Of a DNA stretch of 43,247 nucleotides, positions 12 to 42,783 are shown one piece after another. The notes beneath the pieces are model-generated. The model was not told the DNA's origin, searched no databases, and saw only the letters and a program-made list of their open reading frames with translations. The position numbers were made by a program, and so were the translations under genes. Source of the stretch: Candidatus Caldarchaeales archaeon (GTDB lineage Archaea > Thermoproteota > Nitrososphaeria_A > Caldarchaeales > Calditenuaceae); the NCBI GenBank assembly GCA_032249095.1, contig JAVVGN010000006.1, forward strand, positions 1 through 43,247, given 5' to 3'. Every line of letters starts with the position of its first letter. Positions within the stretch are counted from its first letter, which is position 1.

Positions 12-210
12 TGTGAGCCACTGTCGGCTAAAGCCGACAGCTTCTTGCAGGCACGACGCCGACGAGAGGTTGGCGCCCCTGCGGGCTCGCTCCGAGCCCA
101 ACTTGCTGGGCGGCTCTCTAAGCCTGCCCGATAAAATTATAACGCAACCGAAAGAGAGGCGCATTCCCCTGTCGCCTAAAGGCGACAGTCCCTTGCGCCC
201 GTTTTCTATG
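12..210 (-). mobile_element. Miniature non-autonomous IS200/IS605-type element, subfamily A copy M1 (LE hairpin + TATAAT + omega-RNA-like RE scaffold, no ORF)
   Basis: The reverse complement aligns with both ends of the tnpA-tnpB element at 2676-4416. LE: CATAGAAAACGGGCGCAAGGGACTGTCGCC vs CATAGTAGAACGGGCGCAGGGGACTGTCGCC. RE: GGGCTCGGAGCGAGCCCGCAGGGGCG...GCTGTCGGCTTTAGCCGACAGTGGCTCACA vs 4329-4416. LE hairpin at 169-188; TATAAT on the minus strand at 136-141. Confidence 0.65.
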
Positions 211-1725: not shown

Positions 1726-1832
1726 GGGGGCGAACTGGGTTCGACGGGAAGGAAAGTGGCATCGGTGGCGGGTCGGGTGCACCGATGTCGCCGCCTTCTC
1801 GGACGCGGGTTCAATTCCCGCCGCCTCCACCA
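1726..1832 (+). ncRNA. tmRNA-like tRNA-like domain only (mini-ssrA): acceptor stem with G3:U, T-arm, encoded CCA, no tag-coding region
   Basis: The 5' end GGGGGCGAACTGGGTTCGACGGGA matches the conserved tmRNA 5' end (GGGGCUGAUUCUGGAUUCGACGGGA in E. coli). The 3' end GGACGCGGGTTCAATTCCCGCCGCCTCCACCA matches the tmRNA T-arm, acceptor and CCA. The 7-bp acceptor GGGGGCG/CGCCTCC includes a G3:U wobble. P2-like helix 1746-1752/1794-1800. Hairpin 1760-1767/1780-1787. Total about 107 nt, against about 350 nt for a normal tmRNA. Confidence 0.65.
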
Positions 1833-1859
1833 ATTAACCAATGAGGGGGTCGGCAATAT

Positions 1860-2414
1860 ATGTCTAAAAAACACTGGTGGGTTGTCGGCGGCGGCACAGT
1901 TGTTCTTGTTGCCGTCGCTGCCATCGCCTACCTTGTCGGCAAACATACTCGCCCGCCAGCAACTGAGACCAACAGGTTCGTCAGGGTGATTCCGTCGGCT
2001 GAACGCCGAAGGAGAACGGAGGGAACGCCGCCGACGCTGCCTCCGCCTTACCAATACCCCCAACCCACCCCGCATGAACCGCTTGCAACATTAGTAGGTC
2101 GCTGCTCTGCCTGTAACGGGAGGGGGTTCTTTAGTGACCCAACGATTTGTCCGGTCTGCGGCGGCGCTGGCAAGGTCATTGGTGTCCGTACCGTCGGATA
2201 TGTAGGTGGTATTCCCGTCTACCAACGGGATAATGCGCCGACTGTCTGCCCCTACTGCAACGGCTACGGGTTCTTCCTTCCGTCCTACGGGCGCTGCGAA
2301 ACCTGCGGGGGCAGGACAACAGGCGACTGGTTGAATTATTGGCGACAGCTGGCGAGACAGCACTGGCTCACAACCAGCGGCGGACGCTATGCGGAAGTCA
2401 ATATGACTCCGTAA
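1860..2414 (+). CDS. Membrane-anchored protein with a DnaJ-type CxxCxGxG zinc-finger domain
   Basis: N-terminal hydrophobic helix WWVVGGGTVVLVAVAAIAYLVG. Four CxxCxG(x)G repeats (CSACNGRG, CPVCGGAG, CPYCNGYG, CETCGGRT). GAGGGGG lies upstream of the ATG. Confidence 0.7.
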   Translation: MSKKHWWVVGGGTVVLVAVAAIAYLVGKHTRPPATETNRFVRVIPSAERRRRTEGTPPTLPPPYQYPQPTPHEPLATLVGRCSACNGRGFFSDPTICPVCGGAGKVIGVRTVGYVGGIPVYQRDNAPTVCPYCNGYGFFLPSYGRCETCGGRTTGDWLNYWRQLARQHWLTTSGGRYAEVNMTP

Positions 2415-2480
2415 ATAAGCCCCCCAAGACTGAGCAGGCGATCGGTCAAAAGAGGGGAAGAGCGAAGGAGGCACCTGAAA

Positions 2481-2675
2481 ATGGTAGACAAGGTAATCGC
2501 TAAGGTCGTAGATGTCATCCGCAACACGCCCGCATGGGAAATTGACATTAAGGGATATACCGTGCGGCCTTTAGAAGACAGGGGTCGCACCGAAATAGAG
2601 CTATTAGCTAAAATATGCAATGAGACCCCTTACCTATTCGTGCTCGTCAATAACGAAACCCACCACATAGAGTTC
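2481..2675 (+). pseudogene. 5' part of a small phage gene interrupted by the IS200/IS605 element (3' part = 4417-4497)
   Basis: AAGGAGG RBS before ATG 2481. The ORF runs into the IS left end at about 2676. Removing 2676-4416 (1741 nt) joins it in frame to the 27 codons VEEDDVTRKVEKLLKAIDALLRRLQS*. The restored protein resembles ORF 14988-15281. Confidence 0.5.
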
Positions 2676-2796
2676 CATAGTAGAACGGGCGCAGGGGACT
2701 GTCGCCTTGCTGGCTATCGCCAGCACAGGGGAATGCGCCCCCACCGTCCTTTCGCCGAGGAATTATATTGCTGGATGCGTTATAATTAAATAGTGG

Positions 2797-3222
2797 GTGA
2801 GCAGTATGTTGGAGAAACAACAAGGCGAACGATGGGCTGTCCACTACGGTGGTGTTTGCGAAATTCGCTATCACTTCGTTTGGTGCCCAAAATACCGCCG
2901 TCCTATCCTCGCGGGTTTGGTGGCAGAGAGACTTAGACAATTGCTGGAGGAGCGCGTTGCTATGCTTGGTGGCGAAGTTATAGAAATCGCCATCCAGCCT
3001 GACCATGTGCACCTTTTCCTTCGCTTGCATACTCCTTATCTTGCACCTGCTCAAATTGCTTACCGCCTTAAGGGTTATACAAGCAGAATATTGCGGAAGG
3101 AGTTTCCAGAGTTGCGCCGCCGCTTGCCGACCTTGTGGAGCCGCTCCTATTATGTTGGCACTGTTGGACAGGTTAGCAAGGAAATAGTTGAAAGATATAT
3201 TGCGTCGCAAAGGGGGCGTTAG
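2797..3222 (+). CDS. tnpA: IS200/IS605 family Y1 (HUH) transposase TnpA
   Basis: Contains YHFVWCPKYRRPIL, the HUH motif HVHLF, and the C-terminal SYYVGTVG catalytic-Tyr region. Size about 140 aa. Start is GTG 2797 or ATG 2806. Confidence 0.9.
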   Translation: MSSMLEKQQGERWAVHYGGVCEIRYHFVWCPKYRRPILAGLVAERLRQLLEERVAMLGGEVIEIAIQPDHVHLFLRLHTPYLAPAQIAYRLKGYTSRILRKEFPELRRRLPTLWSRSYYVGTVGQVSKEIVERYIASQRGR

Positions 3223-4497
3223 TTGTTGAAACTTACTTATCAATATAAACTCAAACCAACCAAAACACAAAGCAGGCTGCTGTGGCAGTTTTTGGCAATA
3301 TCGTGTCAAATCTACAATGATGCCCTTAAGGAACGAAAAGAGGCTTGGGAAACCGAGCGCCGAACCGTCACCTATCAAGAACAAGCCCTCAAACTTAAGG
3401 ATTTGCGGGCAACCGATAAAGAACTGGCGCTCCTTAACTTTTCCGCCTGCCAACATGTCTTGCGCCGCCTTGACAAAGCCTTTAAACGCTTCTTTAATGG
3501 GCTGAAGAAAGGCGAGAAAGTGGGCTACCCCCGCTTCAAGAAACCCCACCGTTTCAGGACTTTGGAGTTTACCTACGGCGACGGCACAAAGATTATGCCC
3601 GATGAGAAAGGAAGGTTGCGGTTGTATGTCCAAAATGTCGGTTTGATTAAGGTTATCTAGCATCGCCCGTTGCCCGAAGGAGCGGTCATCAAACAAGTGT
3701 GGGTTACCCTTAAGGCTGATGGTTGGTATGCTACATTTGCTTTGGAAGTGCCCGACGAGGCTGTCAGGAAACCCTTGCTAAAGACAGAAAAAGCCGTCGG
3801 GATAAATGTCGGTTTGGAAAACCTTTTGGCGCTTTCTGACGGAACGCTGATAGATAACCCCAAGTGGTTTAAGGCAACCGAGGAAAAGATTGCCCTTAAG
3901 CAACGAATACTCAGCAAGAAGGTTAAGGGTTCTAAGAGATGGCGAAGGATGTGTCGGCAAATTGCTAAGTTGCATCTTAAGGTTGCCAGACAAAGGCGGG
4001 ATTTCTATTTCAAATTGGCAGGTTGGCTCGTGAGGGAGTTTGACCTTATCGCCGTTGAGGATTTGAACACTAAGGGTTTGGCGCAAGGGATTTGTAGTAA
4101 GGGTGTGCACGATGCCAGTTGGGGCATTTTCCTTAACCAAATCCTGCCTTACAAGGCTTGGAGCGCTGGTAAGGCAGTGGTTAAGGTTAGCCCCAACGGC
4201 ACTTCCCAATATTGTGCTATGTGTGGCGCTTGTGTGCCGAAAGACCTGTCCGAGCGTCAACATTGTTGCCCGCATTGCGGTTTCGTGACGCATCGTGACA
4301 TCAACTCCGCAATCTTAATCCTTAAGATGGGCTTGGAGCGAGCCCGCAAGGGCGCTGGTTTCACACTAGCGTCGTGCCTGCAGGAAGCTGTCGGCTTTAG
4401 CCGACAGTGGCTCACAGTAGAAGAGGATGATGTGACAAGAAAAGTGGAAAAACTCCTAAAGGCAATAGACGCCCTGCTAAGGAGACTTCAGAGTTAA
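3223..4497 (+). pseudogene. tnpB: TnpB (OrfB_IS605, RuvC + zinc ribbon) with one in-frame TAG at 3658-3660; the reading frame continues past the IS right end into flanking gene sequence
   Basis: N-terminus LKLTYQYKLKPTK. The two ORFs 3223-3660 and 3670-4497 share a frame and are separated only by TAG. Zn ribbon CAMCGACVPKDLSERQHCCPHCG followed by HRDINSA. The TTG start overlaps the tnpA stop. Confidence 0.8.
4329..4416 (+). ncRNA. Conserved 3' part of a putative TnpB omega-RNA scaffold (the 5' limit is not determinable here)
   Basis: This segment overlaps the tnpB 3' end and is conserved in the ORF-less mini copies. Stems GGGCTTG/CGAGCCC and CTGTCGGC/GCCGACAG vary between copies by substitutions that keep pairing only as G:U in this transcript sense. 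Confidence 0.5.
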
Positions 4498-4519
4498 TTT
4501 CGGCGCCGAAATTAACTCT
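4490..4519. repeat. 30-bp perfect palindrome AGAGTTAATTTCGGCGCCGAAATTAACTCT, copy 1 of 5
   Basis: Exact palindrome. It contains the TAA stop of ORF 3670-4497 and lies between convergent genes. Confidence 0.9.
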
Positions 4520-4541
4520 AAAACGATGGAGTTATGCTCTC

Positions 4542-5477
4542 CTAAGGAAACACCCCCCGCAAAAGCCTGAATTTTGTCAGCACACCAAGGGTTGATCGCC
4601 AAATCATCGCCGCCAAACTACCCACTCTTTCCCTTAGCTCTCCTATACTTTCTATAAGGTTCTTTTTCTCTTCGTCTGCTGCGAGGTTAGCTACAGCCCT
4701 CGCGAAATTTTCAATCGCCCTCATCTTTTCGCCCAAAAGTGTTGCATTGCCTTCCTTCACCGCCCCTTCTAAATCCTTTACAATTTCACGAAAGTATTGC
4801 TGAGCCCCTTCTACTTTTTCAGCCGGCATTACCTCCACCAAGATTGTTTCCAATGTCTCAACGAATTTTTCAAGGTAAAGCAGGACTGCTTCCTTTACCC
4901 GCTCAACATTCTGCTCCCCCCCGTAATATTCCGACGCCATTTCTGAAAGACGATATTCATTTAGTTTCTCGCCAACAATCCTAGCAATAGCAGCAATTCG
5001 GCTAGCCACCCCAAAACGGAAGCGCTCCGCAAACGGCTCATCAGAGGAAACGACAAAACCGCCAAATAATGCGGGGTCCTGGTTTATGTGCTCATCCACT
5101 TTTTGCAGCTCCCTCTCAATACTTCTTACCCAACTGGGGGAAGGAATACAAGAGAGAACTGCCGACCAATCGGGCCTATCTAAAATATGCCTTCCCCAAT
5201 CAATCCCCTGCCACTCTTCTACCTTAACCTCCTCCGCAGAAACGGAAAGACGAAAGGCTGTTAATACCCTCAGCATCGCCCCAAAGGCATTTCGAAGAAT
5301 GACTAGCCAGTCCAGCACGGAAACTAAGGTGTTGACGGCAAAAACCTCCTTCTGTCCTCTTCCTCGTCGTGCTACTCTATCTAGAAGGGCTACGAGATCC
5401 CTTCCGAGGCTATCTATAGCCTCCAGAGCAGAGAGAATATTGGTCGCTATCTCCGTCTTCCAAGATGCCTCTTGCAT
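4542..5477 (-). CDS. Hypothetical alpha-helical protein, paralog family 1 (with 6757-7554 and 8682-9647)
   Basis: GGGAGG RBS. Shares EEWQGIDWGRHILDRPDW vs VPWTEVDWEKVILDYPAW and a C-terminal F-x-F/L-L-L-R motif with the other two members. Confidence 0.65.
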   Translation of the reverse strand: MQEASWKTEIATNILSALEAIDSLGRDLVALLDRVARRGRGQKEVFAVNTLVSVLDWLVILRNAFGAMLRVLTAFRLSVSAEEVKVEEWQGIDWGRHILDRPDWSAVLSCIPSPSWVRSIERELQKVDEHINQDPALFGGFVVSSDEPFAERFRFGVASRIAAIARIVGEKLNEYRLSEMASEYYGGEQNVERVKEAVLLYLEKFVETLETILVEVMPAEKVEGAQQYFREIVKDLEGAVKEGNATLLGEKMRAIENFARAVANLAADEEKKNLIESIGELRERVGSLAAMIWRSTLGVLTKFRLLRGVFP

Positions 5478-7844: not shown

Positions 7845-8102
7845 GTGGCCAATGTTATCAAAGGAAGAACGGATTTTGTAGTCATCTCCCAAACAAAAAA
7901 GTTCTATCGGATGCAGGATGCAGTCATCGACGGGCTAATCAATGTACTGTCGGAAACGATAAAGTGGCTGGAAGGTGTAAGGGGCAAAGCCTCCATCAGC
8001 GGGGTCATTCTCTCCTGGATCAATGATCTTCAAGAATGGGAAGTAATGATTACCTTCCGCGAACTGAGCCCAGAGGAACCGGTAACGAACGCGAAGAGTT
8101 AA
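7845..8102 (+). CDS. Small hypothetical protein (the start may be ATG 7911)
   Basis: The ORF ends with its TAA inside palindrome copy 2, as ORF 3670-4497 does in copy 1. Confidence 0.45.
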   Translation: MANVIKGRTDFVVISQTKKFYRMQDAVIDGLINVLSETIKWLEGVRGKASISGVILSWINDLQEWEVMITFRELSPEEPVTNAKS

Positions 8103-8124
8103 TTTCGGCGCCGAAATTAACTTT
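8095..8124. repeat. 30-bp palindrome, copy 2 of 5 (29/30 match, ...AACTTT)
   Basis: AGAGTTAATTTCGGCGCCGAAATTAACTTT, located between convergent genes. Confidence 0.9.
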
Positions 8125-8468: not shown

Positions 8469-8644
8469 TCCATCCGAAGTAGGTGCAACATCTATCGCTG
8501 CCCTGCAATCCTCACAAGTCGGAATATAATCCCATTCACTATCGTCAAAAATATCTTAATTCCATATGTAATTTTAACCTTTTTGGTAGCCGAGGAGAAT
8601 TGTCTTGATTCTTAAGCAAACCGATTGCCCCAGATTTGGGCTCA

Positions 8645-8720
8645 CGCAGTGGCGATAGCCAGCACATGGGTTCAAACCCCATCAGGGCAATCCGTCAGAT
8701 TCAGCCGACGGTAGGTGACC
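8645..8720 (+). mobile_element. Deletion remnant of a subfamily-B mini IS605-type element (LE hairpin joined to the last ~55 nt of the RE scaffold)
   Basis: GTGGCGATAGCCAGCACA plus TGGGTTCAAACCCCATCAGGGCAATCCGTCAGATTCAGCCGACGGTAGGTGACC. This aligns with 14160-14177 and with TGGGTTTAACCCCCACACGGGCAAGCCGCCGGCTTTAGCCGACGGTAGCTGACA at 14303-14357. Confidence 0.5.
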
Positions 8721-14099: not shown

Positions 14100-14358
14100 G
14101 GCAGGTTGCAGTCGACCTCGCAGGGTTTCACAGAGAGTGGCAGCAGGAGGCTTTCGCCTTGCTGGCGATAGCCAGCACAGAGGAATGCCGCCTTTACACC
14201 TCCTTTCAGTTACGTTATAATTGTAATTAGTGATTGAAAGAGCGTCTGCCCCTAACATAAGGTTAGGGGCTCGGGCTGCCGTCAGCCAGCCCCAGATGCT
14301 CGGTGGGTTTAACCCCCACACGGGCAAGCCGCCGGCTTTAGCCGACGGTAGCTGACAG
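14100..14358 (+). mobile_element. Subfamily-B mini IS605-type element (LE hairpin + TATAAT + diverged omega-RNA-like scaffold)
   Basis: TCGCCTTGCTGGCGATAGCCAGCACAGAGGAATGCCGCC aligns with TCGCCTTGCTGGCTATCGCCAGCACAGGGGAATGCGCC at 2702-2738. ACGTTATAATT (TATAAT at 14216-14221). The 3' end is GCCGGCTTTAGCCGACGGTAGCTGACAG, against GTCGGCTTTAGCCGACAGTGGCTCACAG in the full element. The left limit is approximate. Confidence 0.55.
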
Positions 14359-14939: not shown

Positions 14940-14969
14940 AGAGTTAATTTCGGCGCCGAAATTAACTCT
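14940..14969. repeat. 30-bp perfect palindrome, copy 3 of 5
   Basis: Exact AGAGTTAATTTCGGCGCCGAAATTAACTCT. It lies between the repeat array and the AAGGAGG RBS of ORF 14988. Confidence 0.9.
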
Positions 14970-14987: not shown

Positions 14988-15281
14988 ATGGCAACGCTTC
15001 GGAGTTGCTTCTTTGCGTACACTCACCAGATGGCGGGCGCTAACTTGGACGAGGAGGTAAAAATCGTCCGCCTAAAGCGGGTGGATACCGACGTTGAGGT
15101 GATAGTGTGCGAAGCGTGTGCGGGGAGATTACTATCAACGGGGAACTTTGTTGTCGTAGAAGAGTTTCGCGACGACATGGATAGAATGGAAAGCATAGAG
15201 CCCGTCGCCTTGCAAGACCTCTTGGATGAAGGAACGACAGTTGAGGATGTCAGCGACGACGGCGGAGAAGGAAATTCTTGA
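14988..15281 (+). CDS. Small acidic protein (97 aa) containing repeat unit R10 in its coding sequence; paralog of the IS-interrupted gene 2481/4417
   Basis: AAGGAGG at 14970-14976. ...FVVVEEFRDDMDRMESIEPVALQDLL resembles ...FVLVNNETHHIEF|VEEDDVTRKVEKLLKAIDALL. At DNA level GTAGAAGAG occurs at 15156-15164 and at 4417-4425. Confidence 0.5.
   Translation: MATLRSCFFAYTHQMAGANLDEEVKIVRLKRVDTDVEVIVCEACAGRLLSTGNFVVVEEFRDDMDRMESIEPVALQDLLDEGTTVEDVSDDGGEGNS
15164..15193 (+). repeat. Tenth copy (R10) of the 30-bp repeat, inside ORF 14988-15281
   Basis: GTTTCGCGACGACATGGATAGAATGGAAAG. It shares 16 contiguous nt (TTTCGCGACGACATGG) with R1. Confidence 0.8.
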
Positions 15282-28084: not shown

Positions 28085-28954
28085 ATGGGGAGGTATAAAT
28101 TTAGGATGCTGACAACTGCCGCCATCGCCGCCGTCCTAATAGAAAAAACCAATACCAGCATACCATGGGAGTGGCAGATACTTCTATGGGGGTGGCTCTT
28201 CCTCGCCGCTGTCAAGGAATATCACTACAGCGACATTTTGTTCCTCATAGATGTAGCGTTGTTCATTGCTCTCTCCACTTTTTGCCCCGCATTGCTACCG
28301 TTAGGAACGGACGCACTGGTCATCGCCGCCCTCTTTACCCTCCTCAAGAGAGCCTCCCTCAATACCGACCAACTACTACAGAAGCATACCAAGTGGATAA
28401 CCGCTCTCCTAATAACCCTCGTCCTATTGGACGTTTTCCTTGTTATTGCCGTCTACCCTCGCATAAAACAGCTAGCCCTCCACTTCACTATCCCAGCCTA
28501 TATAAGCGGGCCAAGAGTGGGGGAGTGGTTTCCCATTTTAGGCAGCGGGGATTACCTCGTAGCAGGCACTCTAATGTCCCTTCTTAATATGCGCTGGCTT
28601 CAAGCGTGCGCTGCCCTTACTATTGCCCTCTTAGCTTGCTTTTACCTTCCAGACGCCATTAGCCAATGGCTACAATTCATACCAGCCCTCCTTTTTATAG
28701 TGCCTTCCTTCCTTTTCGTTTGGTTTCTATGTACTAATATCTCTAAGAGACTCCCGAAACAAACCGAACCCCTTCCGCTAGTCTCTGGCAGAGGCGCTTG
28801 GGGGCTTTACTATCTCGCTATGCAGCGCCAAAATAAGACAAGCGGAGGTGACACGAGGACAGCGCCTGTCGCTGACGTGAGCGACGAAGGACTGTCCGAC
28901 GCCTGTGAGCTGCCATCGGCTAAAGCCAACAGCTTTTTGCAGGCACGACGCTGA
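28085..28954 (+). CDS. Polytopic membrane protein (about 7-8 TM helices); the last ~17 codons are read from mini-element M2
   Basis: Repeated hydrophobic segments (for example LFLAAV.., LFIALSTFCPALLPLG, ITALLITLVLLDVFLVIAVY, FIPALLFIVPSFLFVWFL). The frame enters element M2 at 28904. Confidence 0.6.
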   Translation: MGRYKFRMLTTAAIAAVLIEKTNTSIPWEWQILLWGWLFLAAVKEYHYSDILFLIDVALFIALSTFCPALLPLGTDALVIAALFTLLKRASLNTDQLLQKHTKWITALLITLVLLDVFLVIAVYPRIKQLALHFTIPAYISGPRVGEWFPILGSGDYLVAGTLMSLLNMRWLQACAALTIALLACFYLPDAISQWLQFIPALLFIVPSFLFVWFLCTNISKRLPKQTEPLPLVSGRGAWGLYYLAMQRQNKTSGGDTRTAPVADVSDEGLSDACELPSAKANSFLQARR

Positions 28955-29109
28955 CTTAAAGTCAGCGCCCCTGCGGGCTCGCTCCGAACCCAAGCCATCG
29001 GGCGGCTCTCTAAGCCTGCCCGATAAAATTATAACGCGAGAGCAAGGAGGTGAAAGGGCGCATTTACCTGTCGGCTAAAACCGACAGCTCCCTGCGCCCA
29101 GTTTTTATG
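28904..29109 (-). mobile_element. Miniature non-autonomous IS200/IS605-type element, subfamily A copy M2
   Basis: Collinear with 12-210 and with both ends of 2676-4416. LE hairpin 29068-29087. TATAAT on the minus strand at 29028-29033. RE end ...GCTGTTGGCTTTAGCCGATGGCAGCTCACA (minus sense). Confidence 0.65.
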
Positions 29110-29764: not shown

Positions 29765-29794
29765 AGAGTTAATTTCGGCGCCGAAATTAACTCT
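29765..29794. repeat. 30-bp perfect palindrome, copy 4 of 5
   Basis: Exact copy between convergent genes. Its last base is also the first base (29794) of the polA stop-codon complement. Confidence 0.9.
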
Positions 29795-32352
29795 TAAATC
29801 CCCCTGCGCCGAAACGGAGAAAGATGTAACTCCTCCATCAGCTGGACGCCCCGTTCGGCAAGACCTGCCCTCCACATAGCGGTAACCCCCAAAGGTTGCT
29901 TCTCACCTTCATCTCCCAATGATTGATAGCAAAAACGAAATTCACCATCTATCGGAACAGCCAACTGCCATCGCGCCGATACAAGGGTCATCGCGTCCCG
30001 CAAGCATTCCAAGGCTTGTTCTTCGCAGCCCACCCGCACTTCTGCCAGCATACTATCGTGGATGGTAGCGAGAAGAGCGACGGCATCCGACCCTAACCGC
30101 TTATAAGAGAGGCGGACGAACCAGAGCGTCACCATCTGCCACCAATCCGATGCTTCCGACTGAATGACAAAGTTACCTATCTGACGAAGGGCACGGGGGT
30201 CCCCCCGCACGGCGGCATAGGCACGCCGATATCTCCCAAGCCAATTTCGCACGAACCCGTGTTGTTTCCCAAACGCGTGTACCGCCTCCATATAGCGGAA
30301 GACCTCAGGATAATGGTCGCGCAACCGACTAATGTAAAGATTGGCTTCCTCCTCAGGCAGGCGCAAAAGGCGCGCCAACCCAAAAGGAGACATCCCGTAA
30401 AAGATACCGAGGACGACTTGCTTCGCTATCTGCCTCTCTCTTTTACGGTCAATCTCTTCGGGAGGTTTCCGAAAGATAATGCTCGCCACCTCCGTATAAA
30501 CATCGTTTCCGCTGTAAAAAGCCTCTATCAGATTCGGGTCGCCACTTTTTGCCGCCATCACACGGACTTCAAACTGAGAGGCATCACATTCCAAAAAGCA
30601 ACAGCCTGAAGTGGGAACGAAAATTCGGCGAGCCTGCCGGCCCGATTCCGTCCGCTCCGAGGGGAAGTTGTGAAAGGGAGGCTCTTCAACAGACAAACGC
30701 CCAGTCCGTGTTCCGAAGAATTTGAATTCGGGGCGAATGCGCCCGTCTATATCTACGAATTTCGTCCACTGGCGCAAATAGGATGAATAAAGCTTGTCCA
30801 ACTGCGAGAACTCTATCAAGCGAGAGAGAATTTCAGAGTGCTCAGGGTAATGCTCAAGGAAATACGACAAAACTTGCCGACGGGTCGTCTCGTCCCCCCC
30901 TTCAGGCGGCTGCAACCGCAACACCTGATATAGGTAGTATTTCTTCTCTTGCCAGCTGCGCGGGTTCTTGATGTGTCCCTTCGACAACTGCCTTATCTCC
31001 ACCGTAAGGGCGTCCAACCGCTGGCGGACAATATTTGCAATATCCTTCCGCAACAGGTCGGTATTGACCCCAATCCCTCGGTCGGAAGCAACGGCATAGA
31101 GGCACTCTAACGGATAAATCAATTCCGAAAGGAGAAAATCTAAGTCAGCCTCCCGAATTTGCGCCTGCAGATAGTGATAAAGTCGCACCGTCCAATAAGC
31201 GTCATTAGCATTATATCGGCACAGTTCGTCCCACGACAACTTTCCAAGTCCAGCGGTGCGACGAGCCTCCTGCACACGATCATCTACCCACGAAGGGGCG
31301 CCGAGCAGGCGCATAGCCATATTTTTGAGCCCATACTCATGGTCATCCCGTTCCTCATCCAACACATAATACATCAACATCGTATCAGCGAAAGACCGAG
31401 GCGACGGCACAGCCCCCCAAAGGCGATGGAACCACATCAATTCAAAGAGGGCGTTGTGATAAACCTTGCGAGGCACCGTGCGGAAAATGAGATCGCGCAA
31501 GGGCGAAAGGCGGGGAAAGTCCAGAAGACCATCCTTATCTGCAATAACAACCGTCCGGTCCCCATCCGACAGCCCCACTGCAAGTACCTGCGCCGCTTTC
31601 GTCTTCCCCCGCGTCACCAGCTGGTAACCCCGATAAGCAGGGTCGACGACATCCACCTCAATATCACAAGCAATCACCTCGCGCTCAGAGAAATACCGGC
31701 AGACATCTTCCACTTCCGCGGGAGTGCTTACTACCTCATAGCTAAATGGCGGGACAGCACCACCAGCAGCCGCCAGCCGCCGCTTTACGGAAATAAGTGT
31801 GTCGGTAATCGGCCCCCACAAATTGGGGTTTCGGACAGCAGCGGCTGGATGATAAGTCCAACAAACCCATATCCCGCGCCACTGGACAAATTCACCGTGC
31901 GGCGGTCTCTTCACCCGAATAGCCCTAAAAAACTCGCCTGCGGCAATCGCCCCCAAAAGGCATATATATTGAGGTCGGTACTTCTGGATTTCCTTCATAA
32001 GGTTAATTGAGCAACATTTAGCAGCTGCTCTTAACATCTCATCACTAACATTTGTTTCTGGTAAGATTACACACTTGATAATGTTTGTTAAAATGGAATG
32101 ATCCCAAAGACCGATATCCTGAAGTTTTTCCGCAAACATCTCGCTGCTATAGCCGACGAATGCCATTTCCTTCTCCATCTCCTCCTTTGCTGGGTGTTGC
32201 CCGACAAACAAAATGATGGGTTCACGAAGGACTTTCGGCTGACGCACCGTCGTCACTTGCTTCGGCGAAAGTTGCCTTTGCCAGATCGGGCATGACGGGC
32301 AATTGTCACAGATGACAGGCAAGCGCCCATCTTCCGCGCCGATGTAAAGCAT
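29794..32352 (-). CDS. polA: Family A DNA polymerase with 3'-5' exonuclease and an N-terminal UDG (family 4)-like domain
   Basis: UDG-like: CDNCPSCP..ILFVGQHPAKEEMEKEMAFVGYSSEMF..LTNIIKCV. Exo I: IACDIEVD. Pol motif A: DASQFEVRV. Motif B: RERQIAKQVVLGIFYGMS. Motif C: ATIHDSMLAEV. Confidence 0.9.
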   Translation of the reverse strand: MLYIGAEDGRLPVICDNCPSCPIWQRQLSPKQVTTVRQPKVLREPIILFVGQHPAKEEMEKEMAFVGYSSEMFAEKLQDIGLWDHSILTNIIKCVILPETNVSDEMLRAAAKCCSINLMKEIQKYRPQYICLLGAIAAGEFFRAIRVKRPPHGEFVQWRGIWVCWTYHPAAAVRNPNLWGPITDTLISVKRRLAAAGGAVPPFSYEVVSTPAEVEDVCRYFSEREVIACDIEVDVVDPAYRGYQLVTRGKTKAAQVLAVGLSDGDRTVVIADKDGLLDFPRLSPLRDLIFRTVPRKVYHNALFELMWFHRLWGAVPSPRSFADTMLMYYVLDEERDDHEYGLKNMAMRLLGAPSWVDDRVQEARRTAGLGKLSWDELCRYNANDAYWTVRLYHYLQAQIREADLDFLLSELIYPLECLYAVASDRGIGVNTDLLRKDIANIVRQRLDALTVEIRQLSKGHIKNPRSWQEKKYYLYQVLRLQPPEGGDETTRRQVLSYFLEHYPEHSEILSRLIEFSQLDKLYSSYLRQWTKFVDIDGRIRPEFKFFGTRTGRLSVEEPPFHNFPSERTESGRQARRIFVPTSGCCFLECDASQFEVRVMAAKSGDPNLIEAFYSGNDVYTEVASIIFRKPPEEIDRKRERQIAKQVVLGIFYGMSPFGLARLLRLPEEEANLYISRLRDHYPEVFRYMEAVHAFGKQHGFVRNWLGRYRRAYAAVRGDPRALRQIGNFVIQSEASDWWQMVTLWFVRLSYKRLGSDAVALLATIHDSMLAEVRVGCEEQALECLRDAMTLVSARWQLAVPIDGEFRFCYQSLGDEGEKQPLGVTAMWRAGLAERGVQLMEELHLSPFRRRGI

Positions 32353-41176: not shown

Positions 41177-42754
41177 ATGGACTTGGTAACCATTAACGCC
41201 AGTTACATGACGGTCAAAATACCGATAAGCGACCGAGAGCAATGGGAGAACCTTCTTACCGTAGCAGATAAGCACCTGATAGCCCTGCCTAAAGATGTCA
41301 TCCCGCCAGCCGCCATCGGTTGCCCCCAACATGCCGTTTTCGACCCCAACCATGCCCTCTGCTGGATCCACTATCGCCCCTACAACCAGTATCGCCTCTA
41401 CAGAATGTGGATGGAAGAAGGACATCTCCTCTTTAGACTGCCTATCGGCGGCGTCATCCTGCTTCTTTCAAAGGCAAAAGAAGAATTAGATAACGATGTC
41501 CACCAAACCATCCGCCAATACCTTGTTGCTAATTACCCGCGCAAGGACCTTCTTTCTTTCGACCCCTTAAAATTCCCCGTAGAGCTTTACCCTTACCAAA
41601 TCAAAGCAATAACGGGGGCGATAAACTACAGAAGAGCCATCGTGTCCGCCCCGCCAGGGTCCGGTAAGACAGAAATTGGGAGCGCCCTTATCGCCTCGAT
41701 GCCCGCCCACTGGCAAGTAGGGTGGTTTACTCACACTCGGACACTTCTCCGCCAATCTCAAAACCGCCTGCTAAAAAATCTGCGCGAACCTATCGGCGCC
41801 ATCAGCGGAGAGGATAGCTTTGACCCCAGACGAGTTACCGTTGCGATGGTGCAAACCATAACAAGAAGAGGACAAGAAAAGAATGACCCCAACATCATTG
41901 CATGGCTCCGTTCGTTAGACGCCATCATACTAGATGAAGCGCATCACGCCCCAGCAAAAACTTTCTATTGGACACTGATGAGCTGCACCAAAGCATGGGT
42001 CAGATTTGGTCTAACCGCCACGCCAATGCGGGAGGAAGGTGAAGAGGAAATCTATATGTGGTGCGCTATTTCCCCCCTCATCGTGGAAGTCAACCCACAC
42101 GAATTAGTCGCCGTGGGAAGACTCGTCCCAATAGAACTAATCGTCTACGATTTAGAAGGAACCGTTGAATACAAAGGCAATTACCGAAATTGGCAAGATG
42201 AATACATGGATCAAATCGTCAGAAATAAAATCAGAAACTACATCATCGCAGCAGAAGCTATCATAAACCGCCCATCCGTTATCCTCGTCTGGGCTATTGA
42301 ACATATCCAGCATCTATTGGACGCCATTCAAAATCTATCCAAGAAATACAACATCGAGGTAAAGGTTGCAGCCCTTCACGGCGAAACAAAGAGCCACGAC
42401 AGACAAATCGCATTGCAGCAGTTTGAGACGGGTCAAATCGACATCCTTATCATCTCCGACGTCGGTAAGGAAGGGTTGAACATTATTAACATAAGAAACC
42501 TCATCGTGGCAGCCGGACAGAAAAGTAAAGTCGCCGCCATCCAACGGGTTGGACGAGGAATGCGCCCCAAAAAATGGGGGTTCGTCAGAGTTGTAGACTT
42601 CTACGACTCAGGAGACGTAACCCGCCGTCACTCCTTCCGGCGGATCAGGATATACCAGCAAATGCTTCCTGTAGCCAGGGTTAAGAGAATACCTGCTGAA
42701 GAGGGCATACGGCAACTAATTCAAGAGCTGAAAGGCGGCGCGGCGCTCTTATAA
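41177..42754 (+). CDS. SF2 DEAH-box helicase (ResIII-type)
   Basis: Walker A SAPPGSGKT, DEAH box ILDEAHH, then TATP, then motif VI QRVGRGMR. Confidence 0.85.
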   Translation: MDLVTINASYMTVKIPISDREQWENLLTVADKHLIALPKDVIPPAAIGCPQHAVFDPNHALCWIHYRPYNQYRLYRMWMEEGHLLFRLPIGGVILLLSKAKEELDNDVHQTIRQYLVANYPRKDLLSFDPLKFPVELYPYQIKAITGAINYRRAIVSAPPGSGKTEIGSALIASMPAHWQVGWFTHTRTLLRQSQNRLLKNLREPIGAISGEDSFDPRRVTVAMVQTITRRGQEKNDPNIIAWLRSLDAIILDEAHHAPAKTFYWTLMSCTKAWVRFGLTATPMREEGEEEIYMWCAISPLIVEVNPHELVAVGRLVPIELIVYDLEGTVEYKGNYRNWQDEYMDQIVRNKIRNYIIAAEAIINRPSVILVWAIEHIQHLLDAIQNLSKKYNIEVKVAALHGETKSHDRQIALQQFETGQIDILIISDVGKEGLNIINIRNLIVAAGQKSKVAAIQRVGRGMRPKKWGFVRVVDFYDSGDVTRRHSFRRIRIYQQMLPVARVKRIPAEEGIRQLIQELKGGAALL

Positions 42755-42783
42755 GAGTTAATTTCGGCGCCGAAATTAACTCT
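42754..42783. repeat. 30-bp perfect palindrome, copy 5 of 5
   Basis: Exact copy. Its first base is the last base (42754) of the helicase TAA stop. It ends 28 nt upstream of the next ATG. Confidence 0.9.

Follow-up and report, generated by a model that had tools for sequence, protein, structure and literature searches.

A decaying IS605-type transposon, probably beside a deletion, in a truncated gene of a phage-like hot-spring contig

The DNA analysed here (the window) is one entire contig of 43,247 bp (JAVVGN010000006.1, here contig C6) of a 2.03-Mb assembly in 146 contigs, named for a Candidatus Caldarchaeales archaeon. It raises the question of what a transposon of the IS200/IS605 family has done to the small phage gene in which it sits: whether the gene would be restored if the element left, and whether the right flank could guide the element's nuclease to the empty allele. 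An earlier note on this DNA held that both were so. Its starting point, an insertion of this family in a small phage open reading frame (ORF), stands, given the tnpA and tnpB domains and the further gene-less copies that share the ends. An IS605-type element, combining a Y1 tnpA with tnpB, occupies positions 2679-4415. We consider it likely that this is an ordinary, decaying IS605-family copy beside a deletion, with insertion at a CCAT and, then or later, a loss of at least 420 nt.

IS200/IS605 elements move by single-strand 'peel and paste'. For the well-studied relative IS608, the published excerpts (PMC3201880, PMC5934647) describe a left site, TTAC, with the guide AAAG, and a right site, TCAA, with the guide GAAT, each guide being the four nucleotides 5' of the foot of its hairpin. 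The first two guide bases are paired to site bases 2 and 1, respectively (A+16:T-3 and A+17:T-4), cleavage takes place 3' of the site, and the left site remains in the donor on excision. Retention of the left motif in the donor is part of the family mechanism in excerpts of PMC3201880 and of a preprint (bioRxiv 10.1101/2023.03.14.532601). The same preprint excerpt has TnpA and TnpB reading the same motif, and that of PMC5934647 gives a preferred +1 target base for IS608 and ISDra2.

The IS608 pairing rule fits six of the eight left and six of the eight right ends available for the present family, with compensatory changes across three types of left end and two of right end. The left guide GGGA predicts CC-T, and CCAT is found upstream of the full copy, of the mini copy 13-207 and of the ends C138b and C144. 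Where the guide is GAGG (mini copy 14132-14356), the predicted TC-C is present as TCAC, and where it is GAGA (L014), the predicted TC-T is present as TCAT; each of these left motifs lies 19-20 nt from the hairpin foot. At the right end, the guide GAAG predicts TC-C, and TCAC is located 8 nt past the foot in the full copy, mini copy 13-207, C134 and C140, while CAAG predicts TG-C, present as TGAC in mini copy 14132-14356 and L014.

The conserved block at the left begins at 2675, with C or T at this position in seven of seven copies, and the flanks of the copies share nothing past the motif. On the right, the base 3' of TCAC or TGAC (4416 in the full copy) varies: five copies have A and C134 has T. 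Metagenome contigs that match a mini copy diverge exactly after 14356, the homologous point. The pairing rule and the variable base after TCAC together define the element as 2679-4415. Independently of the pairing, CCAT belongs to the host gene, because its CAT encodes a His66 that is conserved in the intact relative P0129 (see below). The ends at 2676 and 4416 given in the earlier note thus move inwards on both sides. By the published logic, CCAT would also be the transposon-associated motif (TAM); the left flanks AGTTC, CCAGC and TTTGC, from which the TAM was to have been derived, consist of unrelated flank bases and the first C of CCAT. The TAMs assigned to this lineage in the same way are CCAT, TCAC or TCAT, and the case provides a worked example in which sequence by itself suffices for the IS608 pairing rule and covariation between subtypes to fix the ends and the TAM of a thermophilic IS605 lineage not characterised before.

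These ends change the outcome of excision. Removal of 2679-4415 joins 2678 to 4416 and gives an ORF of 70 aa (...EFHSRRG*), to which the downstream VEEDD tail is not joined. Removal of 2676-4416 (1741 nt) does give an in-frame ORF, of 91 aa and ending ...IEFVEEDDVTRKVEKLLKAIDALLRRLQS, as had been reported. This 'restored protein' is a chance chimera, an artefact of ends set four bases too wide. Its supposed likeness to ORF 14988-15281 was not found: BLASTP returned nothing at E ≤ 100, and tblastn with the joined protein gave no hit there at E ≤ 10. A profile of the local repeat units had no match in the tail at E ≤ 10.

The reading frame left of the element is the beginning of a real gene. Its codon-usage score is 0.30 per codon, compared with -0.6 to -0.7 in the other two frames of the same strand and -0.09 to -0.59 on the opposite strand. 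When the 65 N-terminal residues were searched against proteins of 35-114 aa, the sole match was the 102-aa ORF of the window itself. With HMMER, over 1.84 billion representatives, we found P0122, a protein of 206 aa with 77% identity over residues 1-65. A search with P0122 led to P0129 (206 aa), P0130 (213 aa, 20 member sequences) and P0131 (237 aa), each covering 100% of P0122, and the normal form of the family, as far as these sequences show, is 206-237 aa. P0129 is identical to the window at 64 of 66 residues including His66 and then continues with RFKCVGPALSLHTV... (RFKCVGP...) for 140 more residues, where the flank of the element encodes SRRG* or VEEDD..., depending on the frame.

No continuation of this kind is found in the assembly. 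A tblastn search of the 146 contigs with four family members gave the N-terminal part and otherwise chance-level hits (best C-terminal E 0.016), and the three frames of 4416-4541 aligned to the C-terminal parts of P0129 and P0131 no better than shuffled sequences did. Since the homologues continue RFKCVGP... and this is absent from the assembly, the right flank does not carry the remainder of the interrupted gene, and a stretch of at least 420 nt that adjoined the right end has been lost or moved. Judged at the protein level, a guide taken from the flank would not match the uninterrupted allele, contrary to what had been expected of position 4417 onward, and excision would not restore a gene whose intact homologues lack the tail.

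AlphaFold2 predicts P0129, from an alignment of four sequences, with a mean predicted local distance difference test score (pLDDT) of 84.8 and a predicted template modelling score (pTM) of 0.86. The model is one compact alpha/beta unit, of which residues 1-65 would form only the first helix and four strands. No fold in the PDB matched it at E ≤ 0.001, with TM-scores of at most 0.35, and no Pfam family was found for P0122, P0129, P0130 or P0131. The family of the interrupted gene is small, and its fold, predicted with confidence, lacks a solved relative. All four proteins come from short metagenome contigs; residues 21-51 weakly resemble PAN-domain repeats of P0123.

Searches for the locus elsewhere returned little. 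The N-terminal part was found in none of 40 related genomes, and P0129 in none of 400 other genomes of the phylum. Neither P0122 nor the family alignment had a match in IMG/VR, and neither P0129 nor the element DNA had one among GenBank phages. The neighbouring gene 4542-5477 had no match in IMG/VR and one among metagenome contigs, a contig of 2.8 kb that ends short of the site; gene 1860-2414 on the other side gave two unrelated Clostridia hits in species genomes.

What, then, is the right flank? In the VEEDD frame its codon score is 5.66 over 26 codons, while true-frame windows average 4.4 (standard deviation 2.8); 4.3 of the 5.66 units come from the first five codons. The tail ends in a 30-nt palindrome, as other genes of the contig do, and this palindrome may be a terminator-like site. 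The tail is probably what a deletion has spared of another gene, its final ~26 codons.

The tnpB gene is a dead pseudogene. At column 146, all 14 homologues covering it have W where the window has TAG, and at column 195, in the GIDVG motif, D is found in 14 of 14 homologues from other loci and N in the window. This column aligns with the RuvC-I aspartate column of a solved TnpB-like chain. As in ISDra2 TnpB, D195 would be the catalytic aspartate of RuvC-I. The glutamate of AVEDL and the aspartate of HRDIN are retained. With a nonsense codon and an Asp-to-Asn change at the RuvC-I aspartate, TnpB-assisted retention, which the earlier note had read from the arrangement, cannot run in cis now. Six residues differ from the unanimous state of the nine closest homologues (A27S, W146*, G189E, D195N, I283T and R376K); four of the six changes are G-to-A on the coding strand. 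Recoding of TAG in the phage was considered and rejected, as 25 long ORFs are open under table 11, three of them end in TAG and no tRNA gene was found.

The closest homologues are 390-394 aa long. Termination near ...GFSRR/GFSRW, within a few residues, is seen in ten of the 14; three are a few residues shorter and one about nine residues longer. In the mini copy 14132-14356, the family stop TAG falls within the linker that separates the right hairpin from the cleavage motif, at the place where the full copy has TGG, and it is because of this change that the tnpB frame leaves the element. As had been observed before, the frame then meets no other stop until TAA 4495-4497, 27 codons past the element and inside the palindrome 4490-4519. 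Its being in phase with the frame of the tail is a one-in-three coincidence. The closest TnpB proteins in public data, P0002 and P0003 from hot-spring metagenomes (394 aa, 90% identity to the window TnpB) and P0035, labelled Candidatus Fervidibacter sp. and the closest named relative (76%), share the three Pfam domains and the C-terminal ...CLQEAVGFSR with the window protein. They differ from it in having W146, D195 and a stop after ...GFSRR/W, whereas the window has TAG, N and a frame 30 residues longer.

According to the account that we favour, the element would have inserted 3' of CCAT, in the codons for Phe65 and His66 of a phage gene that is 206 aa long in close relatives. Either in the same event or afterwards, the DNA on the right-hand side of the element would have lost at least 420 nt, comprising the remaining 140 codons and probably the start of the next gene, and the right end would now abut an unrelated 3' gene remnant that ends at the palindromic, terminator-like site. 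The conventional route for this loss would be recombination between two directly repeated copies of the element; copies of it are plentiful in the contig. Alternatively, TnpA could have transferred the right end to a downstream target by intramolecular strand transfer, which would also leave an intact right end followed by the +1 A. Decay of tnpB would have changed W146 to TAG, D195 to N and the stop TAG to TGG, whereupon the frame would have entered that of the remnant by chance.

Several observations weigh against this account. The tail has its good codon score in exactly the frame that the earlier note had proposed. The empty site is known at the protein level only, and residue 66 is P, L and V in P0122, P0130 and P0131, which makes His66 the evidence of a single residue. 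The pairing rule is broken at one position each in two of eight left and two of eight right ends, namely at both ends of mini copy 28905-29106, the left end C138a and the right end of the remnant at 8719, and its fourth-base pair is an extension of the complementarity seen in IS608 (C/G at the left, A/T at the right). The missing 140 codons could lie on an unbinned phage contig, which would mean an inversion instead of a deletion. The account also leaves unexplained that the left end (2679-2685) and the right flank (4416-4422) open with the same 7 nt, AGTAGAA. The chance of such a match at a fixed register is roughly 1 in 4,000 to 1 in 16,000. AGTAGAA belongs to the element, because the same left-end start occurs in C138a beside a different flank; other copies share only the first A. 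The match may be a remnant of a right-end/left-end junction or reflect a target preference.

Other histories would give a similar layout. A simple, fairly recent insertion into a gene of ~91 aa, in which the frame is restored when 2676-4416 is excised and a guide matching the empty allele begins at 4417, has its arithmetic right, a tail that scores as coding in the required frame and a stop in the palindrome like other genes. We nevertheless regard it as highly improbable: it cuts through CCAT, a motif that the copies conserve at their left edge, that is complementary to the left guide and that changes together with it from subtype to subtype; the intact homologues have 206-237 aa, the closest of them keeps His66 and none continues with the tail; and a slack of ~2 nt at each end reaches any of the three frames, so that an in-frame join weighs little. 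An insertion at the canonical ends without any loss of DNA, in a lineage that already had a 70-aa gene (...EFHSRRG*), would place the element four codons before the stop. Canonical excision does yield that ORF, and with 66 of 70 codons spared, the insertion would be easily tolerated, which fits its presence in several metagenomes. We find this explanation improbable, since homology to the 206-aa family stops exactly at residue 66 with a relative 97% identical up to there, and an earlier breakpoint at the very base of the later insertion would be an unlikely coincidence.

Rearrangement is an alternative of a different kind, in which an inversion or similar event between two element copies split the gene and its 3' part survives elsewhere in the phage, outside the bin. 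At least four more copies or remnants lie in the 43-kb contig in both orientations, and several short contigs end in copies, which points to assembly breaks at repeats. Yet tblastn with the four family members detected no C-terminal part in the 146 contigs, those with element ends included, and we hold a split of this type to be improbable as well. Finally, the transposase itself may have joined the right end to its present flank, the cleaved ...TCAC being linked 3' of a downstream motif and the intervening DNA deleted. This would account for a deletion whose edge coincides with an intact right end, for the preferred +1 A with which the new flank begins, and perhaps for the 7 nt that this flank has in common with the start of the left end. 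If true, and given the many gene-less copies, the family would be an agent of genome reduction in a large phage. To our knowledge no 'adjacent deletion' pathway has been described for HUH/Y1 single-strand transposons (no dedicated literature search was made), and we consider this origin of the junction unlikely. An insertion at CCAT with loss, then or later, of the adjoining DNA by whatever route remains the explanation that we favour.

The window stretch is contained in sequencing runs from hot-spring metagenomes, which also bear on the age of the insertion; no RNA run is listed among them. The left junction (1806-3490) is present with zero differences in contigs of runs X2 and X3, which belong to different studies, and an X2 contig covers the TAG region without a difference. 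P0033, from another assembly, has the same N195 and the same fusion of TnpB to the tail; three other members of its 90% cluster, of 266 aa, come from further assemblies (sequences not compared). In the Logan contigs of runs X2-X5, which drop rare variants, no joint skipping the element was found. Of the uninterrupted gene sought in public data, the protein family of 206-237 aa was recovered and the DNA joint was not. In run X5 the left flank is covered, with scant coverage of the element and of 4670-5336; this run may contain the intact allele. The insertion is fixed in the sampled populations and not demonstrably recent; with the same junctions in assemblies of several studies and a decayed tnpB, its description as fairly recent does not hold. 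The features of the locus are listed in Table 1.

Table 1. Positions of the element, its parts, its flanks and its gene-less copies in the window
Feature	Position	Strand	Basis and details
First 66 codons of phage gene, truncated by the element	2481-2678	+	Homology to P0129, codon score, AGGAGG upstream of ATG
CCAT, predicted left cleavage/target motif (TAM), host-gene bases	2675-2678	+	Predicted from guide GGGA; CAT = His66
IS200/IS605 element	2679-4415 (1737 nt)	+	Domains, copy alignments, folds, guide/cleavage pairing
Left end	2679-2790	+	20-nt linker, guide GGGA 2695-2698, imperfect palindrome 2699-2728 in outer stem, TATAAT 2781-2786
tnpA, Y1 (HUH) transposase, looks intact	2797-3222	+	Pfam Y1_Tnp, solved-chain alignment
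tnpB pseudogene	3223-4497	+	TAG at codon 146 (3658-3660), D195N (AAT 3805-3807), stop lost (TGG 4408-4410)
Right end and likely omega-RNA scaffold	4296-4415	+	Three conserved stem-loops
Right flank (tail), would-be omega-RNA guide	4416-4497	+	Coding-like in VEEDD... frame; unrelated to interrupted gene
Gene-less mini copy, PATE-like	13-207	-	CCAT at 208-211; same element
Degenerate remnant	about 8560-8719		Ends at 8719
Gene-less mini copy, sister subtype	14132-14356	+	TCAC left, TGAC right
Gene-less mini copy	28905-29106	-	One mismatch per guide/cleavage pair

The transposase gene tnpA matches Pfam Y1_Tnp with an E-value of 6e-35 over profile positions 3-121 of 121. Its product aligns end to end with the solved chains 2ec2, 2f4f and 2a6m, and the HVH and C-terminal SYYV motifs are kept. 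The tnpB frame lies downstream on the same strand and carries the three Pfam domains OrfB_IS605, TNB and HTH. DNA folds of seven left and seven right ends show subterminal hairpins at both ends on one strand and no terminal inverted repeats. The mini-copy hairpins read CTGTCGCC-TTTA-GGCGACAG at the left and CTGTCGGC-TTTA-GCCGACAG at the right; the left hairpin of the full copy is more elaborate. Within the left end, CGTTATAAT is conserved in an alignment of the full copy with three mini copies. The right end contains the guide GAAG (4384-4387), the hairpin (4388-4407) and the cleavage motif TCAC (4412-4415). A consensus fold of four right-end copies has 31 pairs, five of them with compensatory changes, and the same pairs also serve TnpA as DNA; Rfam gave no family match for the right end. 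With tnpA and both ends looking intact, TnpA could still excise the element.

Gene-less copies of the element, which resemble palindrome-associated transposable elements (PATEs), accompany the full one. Ends of more copies are present on contigs C134, C138 (two left ends), C140 and C144, of which C140 and mini copy 13-207 are probably the same physical copy. One related mini copy, L014, comes from IMG/VR; a search of IMG/VR with the left-end pattern gave no match. TATAAT follows the left hairpin in all copies except L014 and C144, the latter a short fragment that ends before the site. The left hairpin, TATAAT and about 95-120 nt of the scaffold at the right end are all retained in the mini copies, each of which could make an omega-RNA-like transcript with its own flank as guide. 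The first 16 nt of the flank of six copies had no second match with fewer than two mismatches in the assembly. An ORF of 289 aa, 28085-28954, enters the right end of mini copy 28905-29106 from outside and continues in it for ~17 codons; here, too, an element copy provides the 3' end of a gene.

The gene content of the contig is phage-like and includes a portal protein, a DnaB-like helicase, an SNF2/ResIII helicase, a family A DNA polymerase with a uracil-DNA glycosylase (UDG) domain and three sigma factors. Its G+C content is 50.1%, compared with 54.3% for the whole assembly. The perfect 30-nt palindrome that ends the tail occurs at gene 3' ends in five copies in the window (4490-4519, 8095-8124, 14940-14969, 29765-29794 and 42754-42783) and on six other contigs (C9, C14, C15, C26, C122 and C144), which probably belong with this one to a single large phage. 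The stops of ORFs 7845-8102 and 29794-32352 lie inside palindrome copies and that of 41177-42754 directly before one; the palindrome has no T-run.

Two further observations concern the contig as a whole. At 1726-1832, a 107-nt match to transfer-messenger RNA (tmRNA) covers both ends of the model with 93 bits. Metagenome depth is very high over this match and host-like contigs diverge at its borders. It is probably an attachment site, used to integrate into ssrA of the host; no tRNA or tmRNA gene in the window was found by ARAGORN. Between 14358 and 15197, directly 3' of the right end of mini copy 14132-14356, begins an array of ten copies of a ~30-nt unit whose consensus starts with GTTTCGCGAC and ends with GGTGGAAAG. 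It sits between the portal gene on one side and a small ORF and the DnaB-like helicase gene on the other. The units are spaced irregularly, at 45-118 nt, and the tenth copy follows 280 nt further on, inside ORF 14988-15281. A profile of the units had no match elsewhere in the assembly. The spacing is too irregular and the units are too degenerate for a working array of clustered regularly interspaced short palindromic repeats (CRISPR); they may serve as replication-origin iterons or as the sites of a phage regulator.

The main value of these results is a correction: the idea that excision restores the gene and that the guide targets the empty allele does not hold. Beyond this, the locus presents a large hot-spring phage that carries one full and several gene-less copies of one transposon.

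The layout is nevertheless that known from TnpB-omega-RNA retention. As in the system described in the preprint excerpt (10.1101/2023.03.14.532601), a TAM lies 5' of the left end, the guide position is taken by the right flank, and the likely omega-RNA scaffold lies across the right end and the last part of tnpB. The PATE-like copies beside a full element likewise have a counterpart in Geobacillus (G. stearothermophilus) in the same excerpt. Unlike that system, the window has a nuclease gene with a nonsense codon and D195N, whose frame is stopless and leaves the element, and a right flank that is not the original continuation of the target site, with a guide that would not match the empty allele. 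The element is not an active TnpB retention system at present.

The transposition machinery, in contrast to the nuclease, invites direct comparison with IS608 (ISHp608) from Helicobacter pylori as described in the excerpts of PMC3201880 and PMC5934647. Both elements combine a Y1 HUH TnpA with TnpB, have subterminal imperfect palindromes on one strand and cleavage tetranucleotides read by a 4-nt guide 5' of each hairpin, and insert 3' of the left motif without duplication. The left site is 19 nt from the hairpin foot in IS608 and 19-20 nt here, and the right site is 10 nt from it in IS608 and 8 nt here. Motifs and guides differ, with CCAT and TCAC read by GGGA and GAAG in the window and TTAC and TCAA read by AAAG and GAAT in IS608. 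The window TnpA has moderate similarity to the solved IS608 chain (E 2e-27), and its tnpB partner is dead. In all structural features that we examined, the element agrees with membership of the IS200/IS605 family.

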